Of a stretch of DNA of 64,000 bases, positions 16,143 to 31,703 are shown piece after piece. The notes under the pieces are model-generated. The model made no database searches. It worked only from the letters and a program-made list of their open reading frames with translations, and was not told the origin of the DNA. How positions within the stretch are numbered: position 1 is the first letter of the stretch; each line of letters starts with the position of its first letter. A program made the translations under genes and the position numbers. This DNA is from a virus, in IMG/VR virus record IMGVR_UViG_3300042898_002514, one strand, 5' to 3'.

Positions 16143-16240
16143 GTTATGGTCTCACCGCTTTGTCTATAGACCGGGTATATGTATACCGTGTTGACGACCT
16201 ATAAAACCAACACCTGTTGGCTAGTTACTCCCCAAGGTAT
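16143..16240 (-). ncRNA. yybP-ykoY (Mn2+) riboswitch
   Basis: Minus strand reads UUGGGGAGUAAC...GUCGUCAACA...GGUGAGACCAU upstream of a TerC gene. Confidence 0.85.
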
Positions 16241-16258
16241 TTAGCGATAAATATTACT

Positions 16259-18319
16259 ATGAAAAAGCTACTATTAAACCCTTGGACCGCATTGGTCACT
16301 CTAGCATTAGTATTAGGCATCCGTCTTGTAGATCCTAGTTTTATTGAAAGCGTAAGACTACGTTATTTTGACACATTAGTAACTAGTCAACCTGCCAACG
16401 ATGTTCCTGTTTATACAGTCAACATTGATGAAGCAACTCTAGACAAGCTAGGACAGTTTCCTTTCCCTAGAGACATGTATGCTGATATCATTAAAGAGAT
16501 TTATAGACGTGATGCCGGACTGGTTGTGTTTAACGTGCTAATGCCAGAGAAAGATCGTTTTGGCAAGGATGCCGTACTAGGTGAAACACTTAAGAAGTAT
16601 CCTGTGGTATTACCAGCACTAGGAAGTGAACGTCAAAAGAATATTACTCATAGAACACCTGCACAAGTAATAGGCATGGATCCTAAGGGACTAGTTGTTG
16701 AGTATCCAGGATTGATTAGTAATGTGGAGCCGCAAGAAAGTCTAGCAGCAGGTGTTGGTATTGTTAATACATTTCCAGAGATAGACGGTGTTGTTCGTCG
16801 TATGCCCATGGTCATACTAAGTCAAGAAAAACTACATCCTAGTCTAGCATTAGAGACACTGCGTGTGGCTGCCAAGGATCCCAAGTTCCAAGTCAAGATT
16901 GGTGACATGGGTGTAGAAGCTGTGCGTGTTCCTAAGTTTGGCAAAGTACCAACGGACAACGAAGGTCGTGTTTGGATTGATTGGTCAGCAACGCCTAGAG
17001 AATACAGTTACATGCAGTTGCCTGAATCATTTGACGGCGGTATTGTTATTGTTGGACTCAGTGCTGCTGGTCTGGTAAACCCTGTTAGTACAGCCAAAGG
17101 TGAAGTATGGCCACAATACCTACAAGGTGCAGTCATTGGCACTATGATGACGCAGAGCAACATACAGCGTCCAGGTTGGGCTGACCAAGCTGAGATCATT
17201 GCCTTGCTGGCCGCTGGATTACTAGTACTATTTTTATCAAGGTGGACCTATGCTTTTATTCCTGTTGTTGTCTTTCTCGGCGGCAGTCATTTCGCTATAT
17301 CTTATCTATATGAAAACTCCAGAATCCTATTGGACGCCACTTGGTTTGTTGTTGGCTGTAGTCTGGTATACATTCACGCTTATAGTGTCAAATTTTTAAG
17401 CGAGTACTTGCAAAAGTCACAGATTAAGAAACAGTTTGGCAGCTATGTAAATCCTGTAATTGTTGAACGCCTACAAAAAGATCCTAGCTTTATTAAACTA
17501 GGCGGAGAGAAGAAAGACCTTACCATCATCATGAGTGACATGCGCAACTTTACTGGCCTAGGTGAAACCTATGGTGATGACGTTGTGGCATTTACACAAA
17601 CAATGAATCGTTATATGACTGCCATTGCTGAACCTATACTGCGCAACAATGGATGCTTGATCAAGTTCATTGGTGATGCTAGTCTGCACGTTCATGGTGC
17701 TCCGATCCAAGAGCTTCAAGATCCTGATCATGCTCACGCTGCTGTCCGCACTGGACTAGAAATGATTCATGCTGTTGAACTGTTTAACATCGAACTTGAA
17801 CGAGAAGGAAAGCCACGTGTAGGTATGGGTTTGGGTATTAACACCGGTCCTACACTAATCGGTAACATTGGTAGTAAAGACCGATTTGGATATGATGTAC
17901 TAGGTGACTCAGTTAGTTTAACAGCACGACTAGAAAGTCAAACCAAGAACTATGGACAACTAATCATTATCAGTGAAAGCACAGAGAAGCGTGTTAACGA
18001 TCAGTACTTTACTATTCCTTTAGACTGTATTGCAGTCAAGGGCAAGACCATTGGTGTTAATATTTTTACTGTATTCTACATGCCTGATGAAACTGTAGCA
18101 GTTAAATGGAACACTGCCCGTGATATGCATAACGGTATGTTGACCTATTATAAGCAGCAAAAGTGGGATGACGCTATAGAATTATGCAAGACACTCACTG
18201 GTGAATTTGACGGCAATATGGATCACTACTATGAACTGTGGATTGAGCGTATAGCTGATATGCGCTCTAGAGATTTACCAAAAGATTGGGACGGTACCTA
18301 CAAAGCTACCTCGAAGTAA
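16259..18319 (+). CDS. CHASE2-domain class III adenylate/guanylate cyclase
   Basis: GQFPFPR, DGVVRR, 3 TMs, SDMRNFT, KFIGDA, YDVLGDSV...ARLE. Confidence 0.93.
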   Translation: MKKLLLNPWTALVTLALVLGIRLVDPSFIESVRLRYFDTLVTSQPANDVPVYTVNIDEATLDKLGQFPFPRDMYADIIKEIYRRDAGLVVFNVLMPEKDRFGKDAVLGETLKKYPVVLPALGSERQKNITHRTPAQVIGMDPKGLVVEYPGLISNVEPQESLAAGVGIVNTFPEIDGVVRRMPMVILSQEKLHPSLALETLRVAAKDPKFQVKIGDMGVEAVRVPKFGKVPTDNEGRVWIDWSATPREYSYMQLPESFDGGIVIVGLSAAGLVNPVSTAKGEVWPQYLQGAVIGTMMTQSNIQRPGWADQAEIIALLAAGLLVLFLSRWTYAFIPVVVFLGGSHFAISYLYENSRILLDATWFVVGCSLVYIHAYSVKFLSEYLQKSQIKKQFGSYVNPVIVERLQKDPSFIKLGGEKKDLTIIMSDMRNFTGLGETYGDDVVAFTQTMNRYMTAIAEPILRNNGCLIKFIGDASLHVHGAPIQELQDPDHAHAAVRTGLEMIHAVELFNIELEREGKPRVGMGLGINTGPTLIGNIGSKDRFGYDVLGDSVSLTARLESQTKNYGQLIIISESTEKRVNDQYFTIPLDCIAVKGKTIGVNIFTVFYMPDETVAVKWNTARDMHNGMLTYYKQQKWDDAIELCKTLTGEFDGNMDHYYELWIERIADMRSRDLPKDWDGTYKATSK

Positions 18320-24375: not shown

Positions 24376-24969
24376 GTGATAAGTAATAGTAATCCCAAGG
24401 AGCAGATCTTGAAGAAAATTGATGAGTTCAATGCTAGTGATAGAATTGGCGTAAAATTATTAGACAATTCCATCCACTATCTCGGTGGTGAAATCACTGC
24501 TGAAAATGTGGAGGAATGCATCAAATGGATTGTTTATGAAAATCTCGAAGTCAAGGAAAAAATACTCACCCTTTATGTAAATTCCACAGGGGGAGATCTA
24601 TATCAAGCATTTGCTCTTATAGACATCATGCAGAGCAGTAAACACAGTGTGAGAACTATTGGTGTTGGCAGTATAATGAGTGCTGCCTTTTTGATTTTTG
24701 CTGCGGGCGCCAAAGGAGAACGATACCTAGCTGCCAACACAGGAATTATGTGTCATCAGTTTTCTGGGAGTGCCGCTGATATTAAGTTTCACGACCTCAA
24801 GGCTGAAATGAAGGAAAACGAATTCTTGAATCAAAAGATGATCAATATACTGCAACAGGCCACGGATCTAACACCATCAAAGATAAAATCAAAATTGTTA
24901 CCGGCTTCAGACGTTTATATGACTGTTCAAGAAGCACTAGATTTTGGTATCGCAGATCAATTACTATAG
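24376..24969 (+). CDS. clpP: ClpP-family protease
   Basis: LYVNSTGG, catalytic Ser (IMSAA), His (MCHQ), Asp (SDVYM), EALDFGIAD. Confidence 0.88.
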   Translation: MISNSNPKEQILKKIDEFNASDRIGVKLLDNSIHYLGGEITAENVEECIKWIVYENLEVKEKILTLYVNSTGGDLYQAFALIDIMQSSKHSVRTIGVGSIMSAAFLIFAAGAKGERYLAANTGIMCHQFSGSAADIKFHDLKAEMKENEFLNQKMINILQQATDLTPSKIKSKLLPASDVYMTVQEALDFGIADQLL

Positions 24970-24976
24970 GACACAC

Positions 24977-25231
24977 ATGGAAGTCATCAGCATCAACAGC
25001 AAACGCAAAGAAGATATTCAACAGCAAGAACAAAAGAAAGCCATGTTAGCAGTGATTGAATTCATCAAAGCGGAAATAGAAAGCGATAGCATAAAAGAAT
25101 TTGTGGCCTGCTCAATCGACGACGGCGGAGAAGTCCAGATACACGTGGCAGCAATGGATCTCCCTGGAAGTGTGGGTCTGTTTGAAATCGGCAAACACAT
25201 TTTGATCACGGGTGAAACAACATTTGAGTGA
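24977..25231 (+). CDS. hypothetical protein
   Basis: AGGA SD, MEVISINSKR. Confidence 0.7.
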   Translation: MEVISINSKRKEDIQQQEQKKAMLAVIEFIKAEIESDSIKEFVACSIDDGGEVQIHVAAMDLPGSVGLFEIGKHILITGETTFE

Positions 25232-25269
25232 ATGTGGTAAAAAAGCCACATAATCAGATCATATTTTTG

Positions 25270-25384
25270 TTGACATATAAATAAAAAGACATTACAATAC
25301 ATACAGTTGGTTAGGAAGGCGTCAAAATTTATTTTGCCAAAACGGCAAATAGAGGTTGACAAGAGAACTAAATAACTGTATAAT
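25270..25384 (+). promoter_or_regulatory. tandem sigma70 promoters driving the tRNA array
   Basis: TTGACA-17-TACAAT (25270-25298) and TTGACA-17-TATAAT (25356-25384). Confidence 0.85.
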
Positions 25385-25432
25385 TAAAACATAGACAGCA
25401 AGGTGCTGTTTATAAAAGGAAAAAGAAAGCAA

Positions 25433-25576
25433 ATGAAATCATTTAACAGACATCAGTTTAATACGATGCCCAAACAGGTAGGTGTAATAGCCTGCTCTTG
25501 GTTATCGATTAATGGTGGAAGTTTATCATATGATCGTACACCAGAGATTTCAAGGGTCCGGGAGGACGTAGTGTAA
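25433..25576 (+). CDS. putative attenuator leader peptide (47 aa)
   Basis: MKSFNRHQFNTMPKQVGVIACSWLSINGGSLSYDRTPEISRVREDVV between promoter and terminator. Confidence 0.55.
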   Translation: MKSFNRHQFNTMPKQVGVIACSWLSINGGSLSYDRTPEISRVREDVV

Positions 25577-25602
25577 AGTAAAACATACACCGCAAACTTC
25601 AA

Positions 25603-25640
25603 GGACCCTGGGAATTAAAACTCCTGGGGTTTTTTGTTTT
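25603..25640 (+). terminator. intrinsic terminator with competing antiterminator
   Basis: ACCCTGGGA/TCCTGGGGT stem plus U tract; GGACCCT also complementary to AGGGTCC at 25553. Confidence 0.75.
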
Positions 25641-25648
25641 AAGGAACA

Positions 25649-25801
25649 ATGACAGAGAAAAAGATTAAAGAAGCAGAATGGACAGTGACGCACACTCTTA
25701 CTAAGGATCAGTTTTTGAAACTGATCCATAATAAGGTGAAACGTGTGGCACAGTATCATCGAGCTATAAACAAGCAGGAAAGTAGGCCAAATGCCCGCTA
25801 G
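25649..25801 (+). CDS. hypothetical 50-aa protein
   Basis: AAGGA SD, MTEKKIKEAEW... Confidence 0.55.
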   Translation: MTEKKIKEAEWTVTHTLTKDQFLKLIHNKVKRVAQYHRAINKQESRPNAR

Positions 25802-25907
25802 TACTGCAACGTGGTAGGGGAAACGAGGTCCTCGCAACACACGATAAACAGTTGTAAACGGGCGGCCTAGGCGATGAAGTCTCTTTTGTGAGATAAAAAA
25901 CCCTAGC

Positions 25908-25963
25908 GTATTAAAGCATTCTTTACGAACAGTCAGACTAAGTAGTTTAGAATGTTTTAATAC
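25908..25963 (+). repeat. hairpin cassette 1 (variant stem)
   Basis: GTATTAAAGCATTCT / AGAATGTTTTAATAC, 26-nt loop. Confidence 0.6.
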
Positions 25964-26020
25964 ACACATTCTTCATTCAGCTCTTGACGCTGTCTAAAAG
26001 CATAGCGGAGAGTGTGTTTA
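25961..26020 (+). repeat. hairpin cassette 2
   Basis: ACACATTCT / AGAGTGTGT. Confidence 0.6.
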
Positions 26021-26028
26021 CAATTTAT

Positions 26029-26117
26029 GGAAGTGTGCGCTGAATTGGTTGAAGGCAACGGACTGTAAATCCGCCACATAAGAAACATTGTAGGTTCGAA
26101 TCCTACCACTTCCACCA
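26029..26117 (+). tRNA. tRNA-Tyr(GTA)
   Basis: Cloverleaf, long variable region, encoded CCA. Confidence 0.92.
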
Positions 26118-26123
26118 AGTTTT

Positions 26124-26199
26124 GCCTCGTTCATATAACGGTCTATTATATCCGCCTGTCTAGCGGAATACAGGGGTTCGACTCCCCTACGAGGCGCCA
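26124..26199 (+). tRNA. tRNA-Asp(GTC)
   Basis: TCCGC-CTGTCTA-GCGGA, CCA. Confidence 0.92.
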
Positions 26200-26205
26200 G
26201 TTTAT

Positions 26206-26281
26206 TCCCCGATAGCACAGAGGTAGTTGCGCTTCGCTGTTAACGAAGATGTCGTACGTTCGATCCGTACTCGGGGAGCCA
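26206..26281 (+). tRNA. tRNA-Asn(GTT)
   Basis: CTTCG-CTGTTAA-CGAAG, CCA. Confidence 0.92.
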
Positions 26282-26287
26282 GACAAT

Positions 26288-26361
26288 GTATCTCTAATGT
26301 AATGGCAGCATCACAGTCTCCAAAACTGTTCGTCGGGGTTCGAGTCCCTGGAGGTACGCCA
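26288..26361 (+). tRNA. tRNA-Trp(CCA)
   Basis: ACAGT-CTCCAAA-ACTGT. Confidence 0.92.
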
Positions 26362-26369
26362 AACAATTT

Positions 26370-26444
26370 GCACGATTCGTCTATCGGTTAGGACGCTGCC
26401 CTTTCAAGGCGGAAAGACGAGTTCGATTCTCGTATCGTGTACCA
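26370..26444 (+). tRNA. tRNA-Glu(TTC)
   Basis: CTGCC-CTTTCAA-GGCGG. Confidence 0.92.
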
Positions 26445-26451
26445 ATATACC

Positions 26452-26525
26452 GCGGGATTAGTTTAATGGTCAAACGAAACCTTGCCAAGGTTTAGTCAGG
26501 AGTTCGATTCTCCTATCCCGCTCCA
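26452..26525 (+). tRNA. tRNA-Gly(GCC)
   Basis: AAACC-TTGCCAA-GGTTT, U73. Confidence 0.92.
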
Positions 26526-26528
26526 TAT

Positions 26529-26620
26529 GCCAGCGAGACTTGACAGTCAGAGAGTCCTTATAAGACTTTTAGCGCCAGATTAGCGTTCTTGAGAGGGTTT
26601 GATTCCCTCCGCTGGTACCA
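26529..26620 (+). tRNA. atypical tRNA with TAT anticodon (Ile codon AUA)
   Basis: 7-bp acceptor, 4-nt D loop, extended anticodon stem, long variable arm, CCA. Confidence 0.65.
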
Positions 26621-26626
26621 CACCAT

Positions 26627-26704
26627 ATAGGGATGGCAGAGAGGCCCAATGCAACAGTCTGCAAAACTGTAAACCCGTGGGTTCGAATCCCACTCCCTAT
26701 TCCA
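26627..26704 (+). tRNA. tRNA-Cys(GCA)
   Basis: ACAGT-CTGCAAA-ACTGT, U73. Confidence 0.9.
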
Positions 26705-26708
26705 ATAT

Positions 26709-26785
26709 ACCCCTGTACGCTAATTGGTAGTGCGGGTAGACTTAAAATCTGCTGGATGGCGGTTCGAATCTGCCCAGGGGTACCA
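26709..26785 (+). tRNA. tRNA-Leu(TAA), short variable loop
   Basis: GTAGA-CTTAAAA-TCTGC. Confidence 0.85.
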
Positions 26786-26853
26786 ATCAACCAGTCTTGG
26801 ACACGCAGACTTTAAAGCGATGTGGGAGTAGGTGGAAGCCCTGCACCTAATAT

Positions 26854-26943
26854 GGAAGTATGGCTGAGCATGGCTTAAGGCAGCAGTCTTGAAAACTGAA
26901 GGCTCGAAAGGGTCCGTGGGTTCGAATCCTACTACTTCCGCCA
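26854..26943 (+). tRNA. tRNA-Ser(TGA)
   Basis: Long variable arm, G73. Confidence 0.93.
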
Positions 26944-26947
26944 ATTT

Positions 26948-27021
26948 TCCCGGATAATTAAATGGTATAATAATCGGCTGATAACCGGTCTTCGCAAGTT
27001 CGATTCTTGCTCTGGGAACCA
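26948..27021 (+). tRNA. tRNA-Ile(GAT)
   Basis: ATCGG-CTGATAA-CCGGT. Confidence 0.9.
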
Positions 27022-27042
27022 ATTTTTAAAATGGAGAATGAC

Positions 27043-27063
27043 ATGAAACGAGGTAAACTCTAG
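27043..27063 (+). CDS. mini-ORF MKRGKL (putative regulatory peptide)
   Basis: GGAG SD 6 nt upstream of ATG; stop overlaps a hairpin. Confidence 0.4.
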   Translation: MKRGKL

Positions 27064-27124
27064 TGTCATCCTAGACCCCCGTATGGTCCTGGATGGCACG
27101 TAAAAGAAAATATTTACGATCCAT

Positions 27125-27199
27125 CCACGCTAAACTTTAGTGGCGAAGTACCCGGCTCTTAACCGGACTAACTGAGTTCGATTCTCAGAGCGTGGACCA
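27125..27199 (+). tRNA. tRNA-Lys(CTT)
   Basis: CCGG-CTCTTAA-CCGG; A at position 8. Confidence 0.85.
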
Positions 27200-27202
27200 T
27201 AT

Positions 27203-27278
27203 GGGAGTATAGTGAAATGGTTATCACAGCAGACTTTTAATCTGCCAGTTCCGGGTTCGAGTCCCGGTGCTCCTACCA
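27203..27278 (+). tRNA. tRNA-Lys(TTT)
   Basis: GCAGA-CTTTTAA-TCTGC. Confidence 0.93.
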
Positions 27279-27359
27279 TAGACAAACACATTAGAAGCCT
27301 TCGTGACTGTGGGCGAGTAGGTCTCTAAGTCGTTTCCGACTAGTGTGTTTTTCTATGGT
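27275..27359 (+). repeat. hairpin cassette 3
   Basis: ACCATAGACAAACACATTAG / CTAGTGTGTTTTTCTATGGT, 45-nt loop. Confidence 0.8.
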
Positions 27360-27464
27360 TAGTATCAGAAGATGTGATCGAAACAGGTGTACTAGTCATA
27401 CACAATGTCGTGACCGGAGGATGAGAAGTCGCAAGAGTAGGCCTGACCGCTAGAGGGTAGCGAC

Positions 27465-27552
27465 ACCATATAAAAACACATTAGGCCTGATCATAGATCA
27501 TCGCGGGTATAGTGCCTTCCGAGCCGCGGACTTGAGTGTGTTTTTATATGGT
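27465..27552 (+). repeat. hairpin cassette 4
   Basis: ACCATATAAAAACACATT / AGTGTGTTTTTATATGGT, 52-nt loop. Confidence 0.8.
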
Positions 27553-27624
27553 AACGTAGCATAATGGTCGTGCACCTCCTTCATACGGAGCAAGGTGCTG
27601 GTTCGAATCCAGCCGTTACCACCA
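27550..27624 (+). tRNA. tRNA-Met/Ile2(CAT), elongator type
   Basis: CTCC-TTCATAC-GGAG, paired 1-72. Confidence 0.85.
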
Positions 27625-27627
27625 AGT

Positions 27628-27824
27628 TTTGTAAGTGTCAGCAAGAGAAAGACTCGCTAGGAAGATTCTTCGAAGGTCAACCTAGTGCAAAAGTAGGGCG
27701 GGTTCGAGTCCCGTAAAAGCAGCGGAGCACCTATGTCAAGTATTCCAAGTGATGTACCACCTCCCGTCCGGACCAGTGCAATCGGGTGAATGGTAGAGAT
27801 TAAAGTGGCTCTACTACTTACAAA
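27628..27824 (+). ncRNA. unclassified structured RNA with internal T-loop
   Basis: Closing stem TTTGTAAGT/ACTTACAAA; GGGTTCGAGTCCC internal; no convincing ORF. Confidence 0.5.
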
Positions 27825-27833
27825 TTCAATTAT

Positions 27834-27909
27834 CTCTCTAAAGTGTTATCTGGTTGCATCCGCGGTTTGGGGCCGTGTGGTCTAGGTTCGAATCCTAGTA
27901 GGGAGACCA
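27834..27909 (+). tRNA. tRNA-Pro(TGG)
   Basis: CGCGG-TTTGGGG-CCGTG. Confidence 0.88.
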
Positions 27910-27917
27910 GTTTCTGT

Positions 27918-27991
27918 TGGGGGTTAGTTAAATGGTATAACCGCGGATTTTGATTCCGCTATTAAAGGTTCGATTCCTTTACCCTCTGCCA
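27918..27991 (+). tRNA. tRNA-Gln(TTG)
   Basis: GCGGA-TTTTGAT-TCCGC. Confidence 0.9.
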
Positions 27992-27998
27992 AATTTAT

Positions 27999-28075
27999 CG
28001 GACCGTAATTCAATTGGATAGAAAGCAAGTCTTCGAAACTTGAGGTTGGGAGTTCGAATCTCTCCGGTCCGGCCA
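27999..28075 (+). tRNA. tRNA-Arg(TCG)
   Basis: CAAGT-CTTCGAA-ACTTG. Confidence 0.9.
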
Positions 28076-28091
28076 TATAAAGGAAAATGCT

Positions 28092-28259
28092 ATGAAAACA
28101 ATTACATTTAAAAATAGATTCAACAATGAGCGAGTGGTCTGTAATGATCCCAAGGCTGTACAAGTAATTGACGGCATTGAGTACCTGTTGGTCAGCAAGA
28201 CCATTCAAGATAGAAAATTTCTAATGCGTAAAGATGCATTGGAGAAGATTAAAACATAG
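28092..28259 (+). CDS. hypothetical 55-aa protein
   Basis: AAGGA SD, MKTITFKNRFNNERVVC... Confidence 0.65.
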   Translation: MKTITFKNRFNNERVVCNDPKAVQVIDGIEYLLVSKTIQDRKFLMRKDALEKIKT

Positions 28260-28265
28260 ATCAAT

Positions 28266-28339
28266 GTTGTTCCTAGTGTAGTGGCTGCACAACTGTCTGT
28301 GAAACAGTTAGAGAGGGTTCGATTCCCCGGTTCAACCCA
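28266..28339 (+). tRNA. tRNA-His(GTG), degenerate acceptor/T stems
   Basis: ACTGT-CTGTGAA-ACAGT, G-1; two U-U mismatches and a shortened T stem. Confidence 0.65.
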
Positions 28340-28355
28340 ACAAAGTAGAAATATC

Positions 28356-28760
28356 ATGGAACAAGTAAAAATATTAAACACATTAAAGGGATCTGTTCGT
28401 AAGTTCGAAGAATTACTAGGACGATCATTGTACAAGGCAGAAGCAGACGACTCAGTATTGACACTGTATCTGTCCAAGACAAACTATGTAAGATTCCAAC
28501 ATCACCAAGATTGTTGCGAAAGTGTTTACATAGAAGACATATGTGGTGACCTCGATGACCTTGTGGGAGCACCACTAGTTGAAGCTGAAGAAGTTTCTGA
28601 CTATGAAGGTGAAGCTACAGGAGACGAGTCTTACACATGGACATTTTACAAGTTTGCTACACGCAAGGGATTTGTAACTGTTCGGTGGTATGGTTCCAGC
28701 AATGGATACTATTCCGAAAGTGTCAGTGTTGATGTAGTTGATACTACTATAAAGGATTAA
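28356..28760 (+). CDS. conserved hypothetical phage protein
   Basis: HHQDCCESVYIEDICGDL, WYGSSNGYYSE motifs. Confidence 0.8.
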   Translation: MEQVKILNTLKGSVRKFEELLGRSLYKAEADDSVLTLYLSKTNYVRFQHHQDCCESVYIEDICGDLDDLVGAPLVEAEEVSDYEGEATGDESYTWTFYKFATRKGFVTVRWYGSSNGYYSESVSVDVVDTTIKD

Positions 28761-28761
28761 T

Positions 28762-28837
28762 GCAACTTTAGCTGATGTGGTCATAGCGGCGGTTTGAAGA
28801 ACCGTTGAACCAGGTTCGATTCCTGGAGGTTGCACCA
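28762..28837 (+). tRNA. tRNA-Phe(GAA)
   Basis: GCGGT-TTGAAGA-ACCGT. Confidence 0.9.
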
Positions 28838-28875
28838 AGACAAATGCGAGAATGGTGGAATTTAATAAATATTAT

Positions 28876-30159: not shown

Positions 30160-30188
30160 TTGACAAGATAACGTAATGACTATATAAT
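30160..30188 (+). promoter_or_regulatory. sigma70 promoter
   Basis: TTGACA-17-TATAAT. Confidence 0.85.
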
Positions 30189-30241
30189 AGTTACATACTA
30201 AGCAATTAGTAATGTTCATTAAAAATTTAAAGTAAGATTTT

Positions 30242-31679: not shown

Positions 31680-31703
31680 AGTTTTGTTGTGTAGCAATAC
31701 ACA

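Follow-up and report, generated by a model that had tools for sequence, protein, structure and literature searches.

The locus analysed here lies on a contig of an uncultured phage from lake water, of which a stretch of 64,000 nucleotides (hereafter called the window) was available. A leader unit heads the tRNA block of this phage and consists of a σ70 promoter, a short hairpin at the 5' end of the predicted transcript, a short ORF, a long hairpin (hairpin A) and an intrinsic terminator (T), followed downstream by a second small ORF (ORF2), a structured RNA, hairpin cassettes and the first tRNA genes (Table 1). A preliminary description of the locus had proposed that a leader-peptide attenuator controls a phage tRNA operon, and all coordinates given in it proved correct when rechecked on the sequence. 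The promoter (TTGACA-17-TATAAT) matches the consensus at every position, as had been claimed, the ORF encodes a peptide of the expected length that holds all 20 amino acids, and the terminator stem is followed by a U-tract. Likewise, AGGGTCC (25553–25559) is the exact complement of GGACCCT (25603–25609), and GGAG (25561–25564) faces CTTC (25597–25600), the two pairings on which the proposed antiterminator was based.

Table 1. Features of the leader unit and of the region up to the first tRNA cluster (positions in the window).
Feature	Position	Strand	Remarks
Upstream promoter-like site	25270–25298	+	TTGACA-17-TACAAT; 11/12 matches
Leader promoter, σ70 consensus	25356–25384	+	12/12 matches; same distance to ORF in relatives
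5'-terminal hairpin of leader transcript	25391–25413	+	In relatives, stem sequence varies and pairing is kept
Leader ORF	25433–25576	+	47 aa plus stop
Helix S (candidate), 5' strand	25434–25441	+	Start-codon region; pairs with 25531–25538
Helix S (candidate), 3' strand	25531–25538	+	Codons Tyr-Asp-Arg-Thr; synonymous sites invariant
Hairpin A, 5' strands	25546–25575	+	Minimum-energy fold; outer 25546–25551, core AGGGUCC 25553–25559, middle 25562–25565, apical 25568–25575
Hairpin A, 3' strands	25586–25615	+	Minimum-energy fold; apical 25586–25593, middle CUUC 25597–25600, core GGACCCU 25603–25609, outer 25611–25615
Intrinsic terminator T	25606–25640	+	Stem 25606–25613/25622–25629, U-tract 25630–25640
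ORF2	25649–25801	+	50 aa; no family match (PHROGs, Pfam, ESM Atlas)
Conserved structured RNA, pseudoknot-like	~25805–25905	+	No Rfam match
Long hairpin cassettes	25908–26020	+	Directly ahead of first tRNA
First tRNA cluster	26029–28838	+	19 tRNAs for 17 amino acids

The ATG of the leader ORF, located about 42 nt past the predicted transcript start, is kept in most relatives and is preceded at a distance of 8–13 nt by a Shine-Dalgarno-like sequence (AAAGAG/AAAGGA, with AAAGGA at 12–13 nt), which is a weak or distant match. The loop of the 5' hairpin is not conserved across relatives. Similar hairpins start the predicted transcripts of three of the four promoters with 12/12 matches in the window (25391–25413, 30195–30215 and 31684–31703), two of them with a GCAA loop, and may serve to stabilise the 5' end or to provide a recognition element. 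A perfect 7-bp palindrome (25333–25349, TTTGCC-AAA-ACGGCAAA type), possibly an operator or else resembling a terminator on the minus strand, is situated between the upstream promoter-like site and the −35 hexamer of the leader promoter. Within the ORF, the start-codon region may pair with codons 33–36 to form helix S, a candidate that has a single covarying pair, is weaker in the window than in most relatives and stops 5 nt short of hairpin A; if formed, this helix may permit one round of initiation only. Upstream of the leader, the window contains a gene for a ClpP-like protease (24376–24969) followed by a small ORF. A ClpP-like protease gene and a small ORF likewise precede the leader in a distant relative (847–1404 of that contig), indicating that the gene order upstream of the leader is also conserved.

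The minimum-energy fold of positions 25540–25645 is the long hairpin A, which uses the 5' arm of the terminator and whose apical 5' strand takes in the first two bases of the ORF stop codon. The two structures have CCCU (25606–25609) in common and thus exclude each other, in agreement with the mutually exclusive terminator and antiterminator of the preliminary description. Of the 46 distinct variants, 43 have hairpin A as their most stable predicted fold, despite a strongly divergent apical sequence, and the mean energies of A and T (−28.0 and −11.6 kcal/mol, respectively) are separated by a gap of about 16 kcal/mol. T is nonetheless kept in all 48 aligned sequences, one variant carrying a fully compensated stem, and as A outcompetes a terminator that is universally conserved, T can act only if A is blocked. 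For the hairpin region a covariance-model alignment was used, the MAFFT version having misaligned the frame-shifted variants. In this alignment 88.6% of the cells in hairpin A were paired, and the covariation score of A was 0.211, compared with 0.125 for shuffles (0 of 500 reached the observed value) and at most 0.107 for slid partners; such an alignment leans towards structure because it is fitted to a model, a bias that the slid-partner controls limit. For the pair closing the GGGUCC/GGACCC core, which overlaps T, 34 sequences have A-U, 11 have G-C and four have G-U; one core pair switches from C-G to U-A, and in each of the seven apical pairs both partners vary. The leader as a whole also folds better than shuffled sequence (z = −4.5). 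When upstream sequence was included in the folds, nothing competed for the 5' strand of A and no conserved 1:2 (anti-antiterminator) hairpin was found, from which it is predicted that an untranslated leader would read through rather than super-attenuate.

An exact 23-mer matched eight viral contigs, and a scan with a peptide profile extended the family to at least 58 IMG/VR loci and to 98 protein clusters, none of them named; the family comprises about 137 distinct peptides. The order of consensus promoter, 5' hairpin, ORF of 46–53 codons, hairpin A and terminator T is fixed in every relative, and the RNA elements persist even in members, including a marine one, whose peptides are only about 42% identical. 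The family is therefore not limited to fresh water, as the marine member was found on a TARA scaffold. The window itself was present, at more than half of the sampled words, in lake-water metagenomes of 14 coded study records, and 20 study records contain at least part of it, although records of the same year and habitat may belong to one campaign. Comparison of the window DNA with 50,697 phage records (blastn and megablast) gave no match. A scan of bacterial and archaeal genomes returned one match to the leader, on a 6.2 kb contig of a Polynucleobacter metagenome-assembled genome, which is possibly a hint to the host at most, or else a binning error. A 700-aa protein encoded elsewhere in the window (16217–18319) has only distant phage protein relatives (34–39% identity), found in Methylophilales phage Melnitz and Pelagibacter phage HTVC008M and annotated as adenylate/guanylate cyclase-domain proteins.

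Alignment of the relatives upstream of their tRNA arrays, which had been suggested as a means of checking the proposal, revealed a conserved short ORF with a stop position fixed inside hairpin A. The accompanying expectation that length and stop position rather than sequence would be conserved held for the stop position, but the peptide sequence is conserved as well (dN/dS of about 0.44), with Trp, Asp-Arg and Pro-Glu invariant in the first 40 residues. The ORF is uninterrupted in all 48 sequences. When nucleotide columns were shuffled, a procedure preferred to a comparison of seen and unseen single-nucleotide changes since variants co-occur within codons, a mean of 17.7 of the 48 sequences gained an in-frame stop, and none of 1000 shuffles left all sequences open. 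Moreover, insertions and deletions in the first 40 codons occur in multiples of three nucleotides only. Past the invariant Asp-Arg-Thr-Pro-Glu-Ile, the GGGUCC core is read in different frames (giving SRVR, QGSR or PGSQ), and since the C-terminal frame varies over a constant GGGUCC, it is the RNA and not the peptide that is conserved there. The in-frame stop lies 14–21 nt past the 5' core and 23–32 nt before the 3' core in all 46 variants, and the two other frames have no comparable constant stop; with its position fixed in this way, hairpin A would be covered or split by a ribosome that has reached the final codons or the stop. The leader peptide had no family match in PHROGs, Pfam or the ESM Atlas, and AlphaFold2, supplied with 74 sequences, gave no confident fold (pLDDT 56, pTM 0.13). 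Conservation of the first 40 residues would be unneeded by a pure decoding sensor, which hints at a function of the peptide or at additional constraints on the RNA. Two other readings of this segment were dropped: a type I toxin–antitoxin mRNA, the longest hydrophobic stretch being about 11 residues, and an antisense promoter (25553–25525, minus strand), the −35 hexamer of which coincides with the codon that varies most.

The leader peptide of the window contains every one of the 20 amino acids, as had been reported, and so do those of 45 of the 48 loci and 78 of the 98 database homologues. The concern that such completeness can arise by chance was met by the finding that only 2.4–3.2% of random or real 48-mers hold all 20. 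Within the family, 85% of the peptides were complete, compared with 46% when the alignment columns were resampled independently, showing that inheritance accounts for part of this content. The excess was due to Tyr (missing in 0% of the peptides, 15% expected from column resampling), to Cys (missing in 11%, 32% expected) and also to His, for which it may partly reflect a shift of position by one or two residues. Across the family the single Tyr occupies three alternative sites and Cys about five, and all 39 peptides without the usual Tyr carry another elsewhere, compared with 13 of the 89 that keep it. Phylogenetically independent contrasts of these relocations went in the expected direction (Tyr 3/3, Cys about 4/4) and were too few to be significant. 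The two most divergent members again have all 20 amino acids, with Phe, Cys and Val at new positions. Taken together, we regard the sequences as genuine, though moderate, evidence for selection on the completeness of the amino-acid repertoire. Some variants have their sole Tyr or Cys within the 5' strand of hairpin A, where a stall would favour termination and not read-through.

With respect to codon use, no run of codons for a single amino acid was found in the leader ORF, and many amino acids occur once. The preliminary description had also pointed to typically rare codons in the ORF. This argument adds nothing, because 42 of the 47 leader codons match phage tRNAs and 32% of background windows do at least as well; for the same reason, a tailoring of the ORF to the codons read by the phage tRNAs is not supported here. 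The number of distinct anticodons sampled by the ORF (23 of 27) was borderline (p of about 0.05) and results from its amino-acid diversity.

The array that follows contains 29 tRNA genes for all 20 amino acids, as originally described, with the first gene at 26029. At all 54 loci with enough sequence, a tRNA array on the same strand begins 217–966 nt after T, and almost no tRNA genes lie upstream. The claim that the terminator is followed by the array thus stands as regards order and strand, but the two do not adjoin, given that ORF2, the structured RNA and the hairpin cassettes intervene. The Shine-Dalgarno site of ORF2 abuts the U-tract of T, and ORF2 is missing in about 14 of 48 relatives. 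The structured RNA is the first element past T that is common to nearly all relatives and contains two covarying hairpins, an invariant AAAYGGGCGG, an outer stem around a variable hairpin and a pseudoknot (25810–25813 with 25841–25844) in which A-U changes to C-G; compensatory changes were present in 10 of the 14 pairs predicted by RNAalifold from 31 relatives. As it is retained even where ORF2 is absent, this RNA may be the common target of the switch. Comparison by eye with hammerhead and HDV-like folds showed mismatches in core nucleotides or strand order. In the hairpin cassettes, the outer stem is conserved, the interior is variable and compensatory changes are seen among relatives.

No consensus promoter was found between T and the first tRNA gene in the window and in 41 of the 54 relatives; the other 13 have a further consensus promoter ahead of the first tRNA. 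Downstream portions of the array are served by additional consensus promoters in the window (30160, 31651 and 35632), which are not associated with such a leader. The promoter at 30160 directly precedes a Leu tRNA gene (anticodon TAG), which it is predicted to drive, and the Val, Ala and Thr tRNA genes are located behind this and the later promoters. The proposal that the switch gates a tRNA operon for 20 amino acids can therefore be maintained for the first cluster of 19 tRNAs at most, but not for the later clusters, which have promoters of their own. Together with the extra promoters of relatives, this means that the tRNA supply would be only partly gated.

On the basis of the sequence comparisons, the leader is probably a ribosome-dependent transcription attenuator heading the phage tRNA array. 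From its anatomy, conservation and covariation, its coding signature and its link to the tRNA array, we infer that the ORF is translated, that transcription terminates at T, and in which direction and to what signal the switch responds. A leader RNA would be produced from the strong early promoter at 25356, and its 47-codon ORF would be translated once. The last codons of the ORF form the 5' strand of the three-tier hairpin A, the 3' strand of which is in turn the 5' strand of T. On naked RNA, hairpin A would form first and be much the stabler of the two, so that T would not form and the polymerase would continue to ORF2 (where present), the structured RNA and the first tRNA cluster. A ribosome pacing the polymerase would instead sit on the 5' strand of A or on the stop codon, T would form, and transcription would end near 25635. 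The ribosome would thus play the part of the anti-antiterminator, with efficient decoding turning the unit off and a ribosome that is late or stalled upstream turning it on. Since the ORF contains all 20 amino acids, most of them as one or two codons upstream of A, the ribosome could be held up when almost any charged tRNA is scarce, and the resulting read-through would constitute negative feedback on tRNA supply. Promoters or antitermination factors specific to the phage may qualify this reading. A more far-reaching version, which we put forward tentatively, is that the leader serves as a pan-amino-acid decoding test for homeostatic control of the phage's own tRNA supply. A single pioneer ribosome would have to read the whole 47-codon ORF, its repertoire of 20 amino acids being kept complete, and a lack of any charged tRNA caused by host shut-off, starvation or tRNA-cleaving defences would delay it, hairpin A would form, and the structured RNA and tRNA array would be transcribed until decoding recovers.

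An alternative explanation, which we regard as rather unlikely, is that the unit simply encodes a small functional protein, as an early gene equipped with a promoter and terminator of its own that happens to neighbour the tRNA array, and that hairpin A stabilises the 3' end of the mRNA or tunes the translation of the gene itself. The peptide is indeed conserved, as seen from its dN/dS of about 0.44 and its invariant Trp, Asp-Arg and Pro-Glu, its reading frame is kept open, some relatives have a further promoter before the tRNAs, and the upstream order of ClpP-like protease, small ORF and leader unit is conserved too, all of which would be expected of such a gene. A stabilising hairpin, however, needs neither a four-base overlap with T nor covariation at the overlapping pair, and with an advantage of about 16 kcal/mol over T it would disable the gene's own terminator on untranslated RNA. 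Furthermore, the C-terminal residues shift frame over constant RNA, the peptide has no relative in Pfam, PHROGs or the Atlas and no confident fold, and the unit heads a tRNA array at 54 of 54 loci.

A further alternative is that the stretch from the 25356 promoter to the terminator yields a structured small RNA, about 245 nt long and possibly with a dual function, in which the ORF would be secondary and which would work as RNA, for instance through base pairing or through contact with a protein or tRNA. Its stability relative to shuffled sequence (z = −4.5), the long stretches of near-invariant synonymous sites, with variation wobble-compatible with the predicted helices (98.9% paired), and the possible pairing of the start-codon region with codons 33–36 are in line with such an RNA. 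In three of four lake metatranscriptomes the conserved part of the ORF also had a higher summed contig depth, a comparison confounded by relatives that map there; over this region the metatranscriptomes consist of contigs that mix relatives and are blind to 3' ends and read-through. We nevertheless consider a small RNA improbable, because the frame is preserved through indels of multiples of three and through avoidance of stops within codons, the stop keeps its place relative to A only in the frame that is read, and relocation of residues keeps the amino-acid repertoire complete, which would be meaningless for a noncoding RNA; in addition, only one covarying pair lies inside the ORF. Least probable of all appears a switch between A and T that is set by a factor or ligand, such as a phage antitermination protein acting on the 5' hairpin, a riboswitch-like domain or, as in T-boxes, an uncharged tRNA. 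In line with such control, a short 5' hairpin opens each of the transcripts predicted for the 25356, 30160 and 31651 consensus promoters, and the leader has several invariant helices. Against this, the loop of the 5' hairpin varies among relatives, the helices of the ORF show neither aptamer-like covariation nor conserved junctions, no Rfam family, T-box included, matches the leader at E-values up to 1, and the geometry that links the ORF to the hairpin would be left unexplained.

Phage tRNA genes have been known for more than 50 years, and to our knowledge the control of their expression is largely unexplored. Our literature search found no description of an attenuator before phage tRNA arrays or of trp-like control of tRNA genes. 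If the leader does test the decoding of all 20 amino acids and then opens the tRNA array, no earlier attenuator of tRNA genes would have been reported and, as a general rather than an amino-acid-specific sensor, it would extend a textbook mechanism. The size and variety of the family (58 contigs and about 137 peptides from freshwater and marine samples) are suited to guiding mutational tests, and at only about 250 nt the switch is directly testable in a coupled in-vitro system and could serve as a compact reporter of translational capacity. Phage tRNA genes are now regarded as a counter to tRNA-cleaving host defences (PMC10264068, PMC11464382, PMC11555353). These studies concern the function of phage tRNAs and not the control of their expression, attenuators, leaders, promoters and terminators not being mentioned in PMC10264068, and they describe biological circumstances under which sensing a shortage of tRNAs would benefit a phage.

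A search of positions 24800–26200 with all 4227 Rfam families returned only tRNAs above the gathering thresholds and neither a leader family nor a T-box; two other listings (E of about 0.1) overlap tRNA genes and are far below threshold. T-box riboswitches bind one uncharged tRNA directly, without translation. The phage leader resembles them in that tRNA status would be tied to the choice between terminator and antiterminator, and no T-box match was found in it. The leaders of erm, cat and ABC-F genes are short, contain drug-dependent arrest motifs and control resistance genes, many of them by acting on translation initiation; with these the phage leader shares an ORF that would respond to impaired translation in general and is linked to a choice between RNA structures.

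The closest likeness in anatomy is to the leader-peptide attenuators trpL, hisL, leuL, thrL, pheL, the ilv leaders and pheST, in which the position of the leading ribosome picks the hairpin. Similar to the enterobacterial attenuators, the phage unit has a promoter-proximal short ORF, an intrinsic terminator and an exclusive antiterminator that occupies the 5' strand of the terminator, and a stall upstream would give read-through. Four of five structural hallmarks of leader-peptide attenuators were found, whereas control codons were not. The geometry of the trp/his/pheS type, which the preliminary description had recognised here, is thus present as regards the ORF, the terminator, the antiterminator and the overlap between ORF and switch, but control codons are lacking and no conserved 1:2 hairpin, as known from trp, was found in the phage leader. 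In contrast to the runs of one amino acid in the enterobacterial leaders, all 20 amino acids are represented in 46–53 codons, the peptide is longer than classical leader peptides and conserved in sequence, and the downstream genes encode phage tRNAs and a structured RNA instead of biosynthetic enzymes. In the mgtL leader of Salmonella mgtA, which likewise does without the four segments of trp, and in related leaders, completed translation favours termination and an early stall favours read-through; mgtL senses proline via a few Pro codons, employs Rho-dependent termination together with a Mg2+ riboswitch, and controls a transporter. The phage leader would share the logic of mgtL, in that full translation of the ORF would turn the downstream genes off and an early-stalled ribosome would turn them on.
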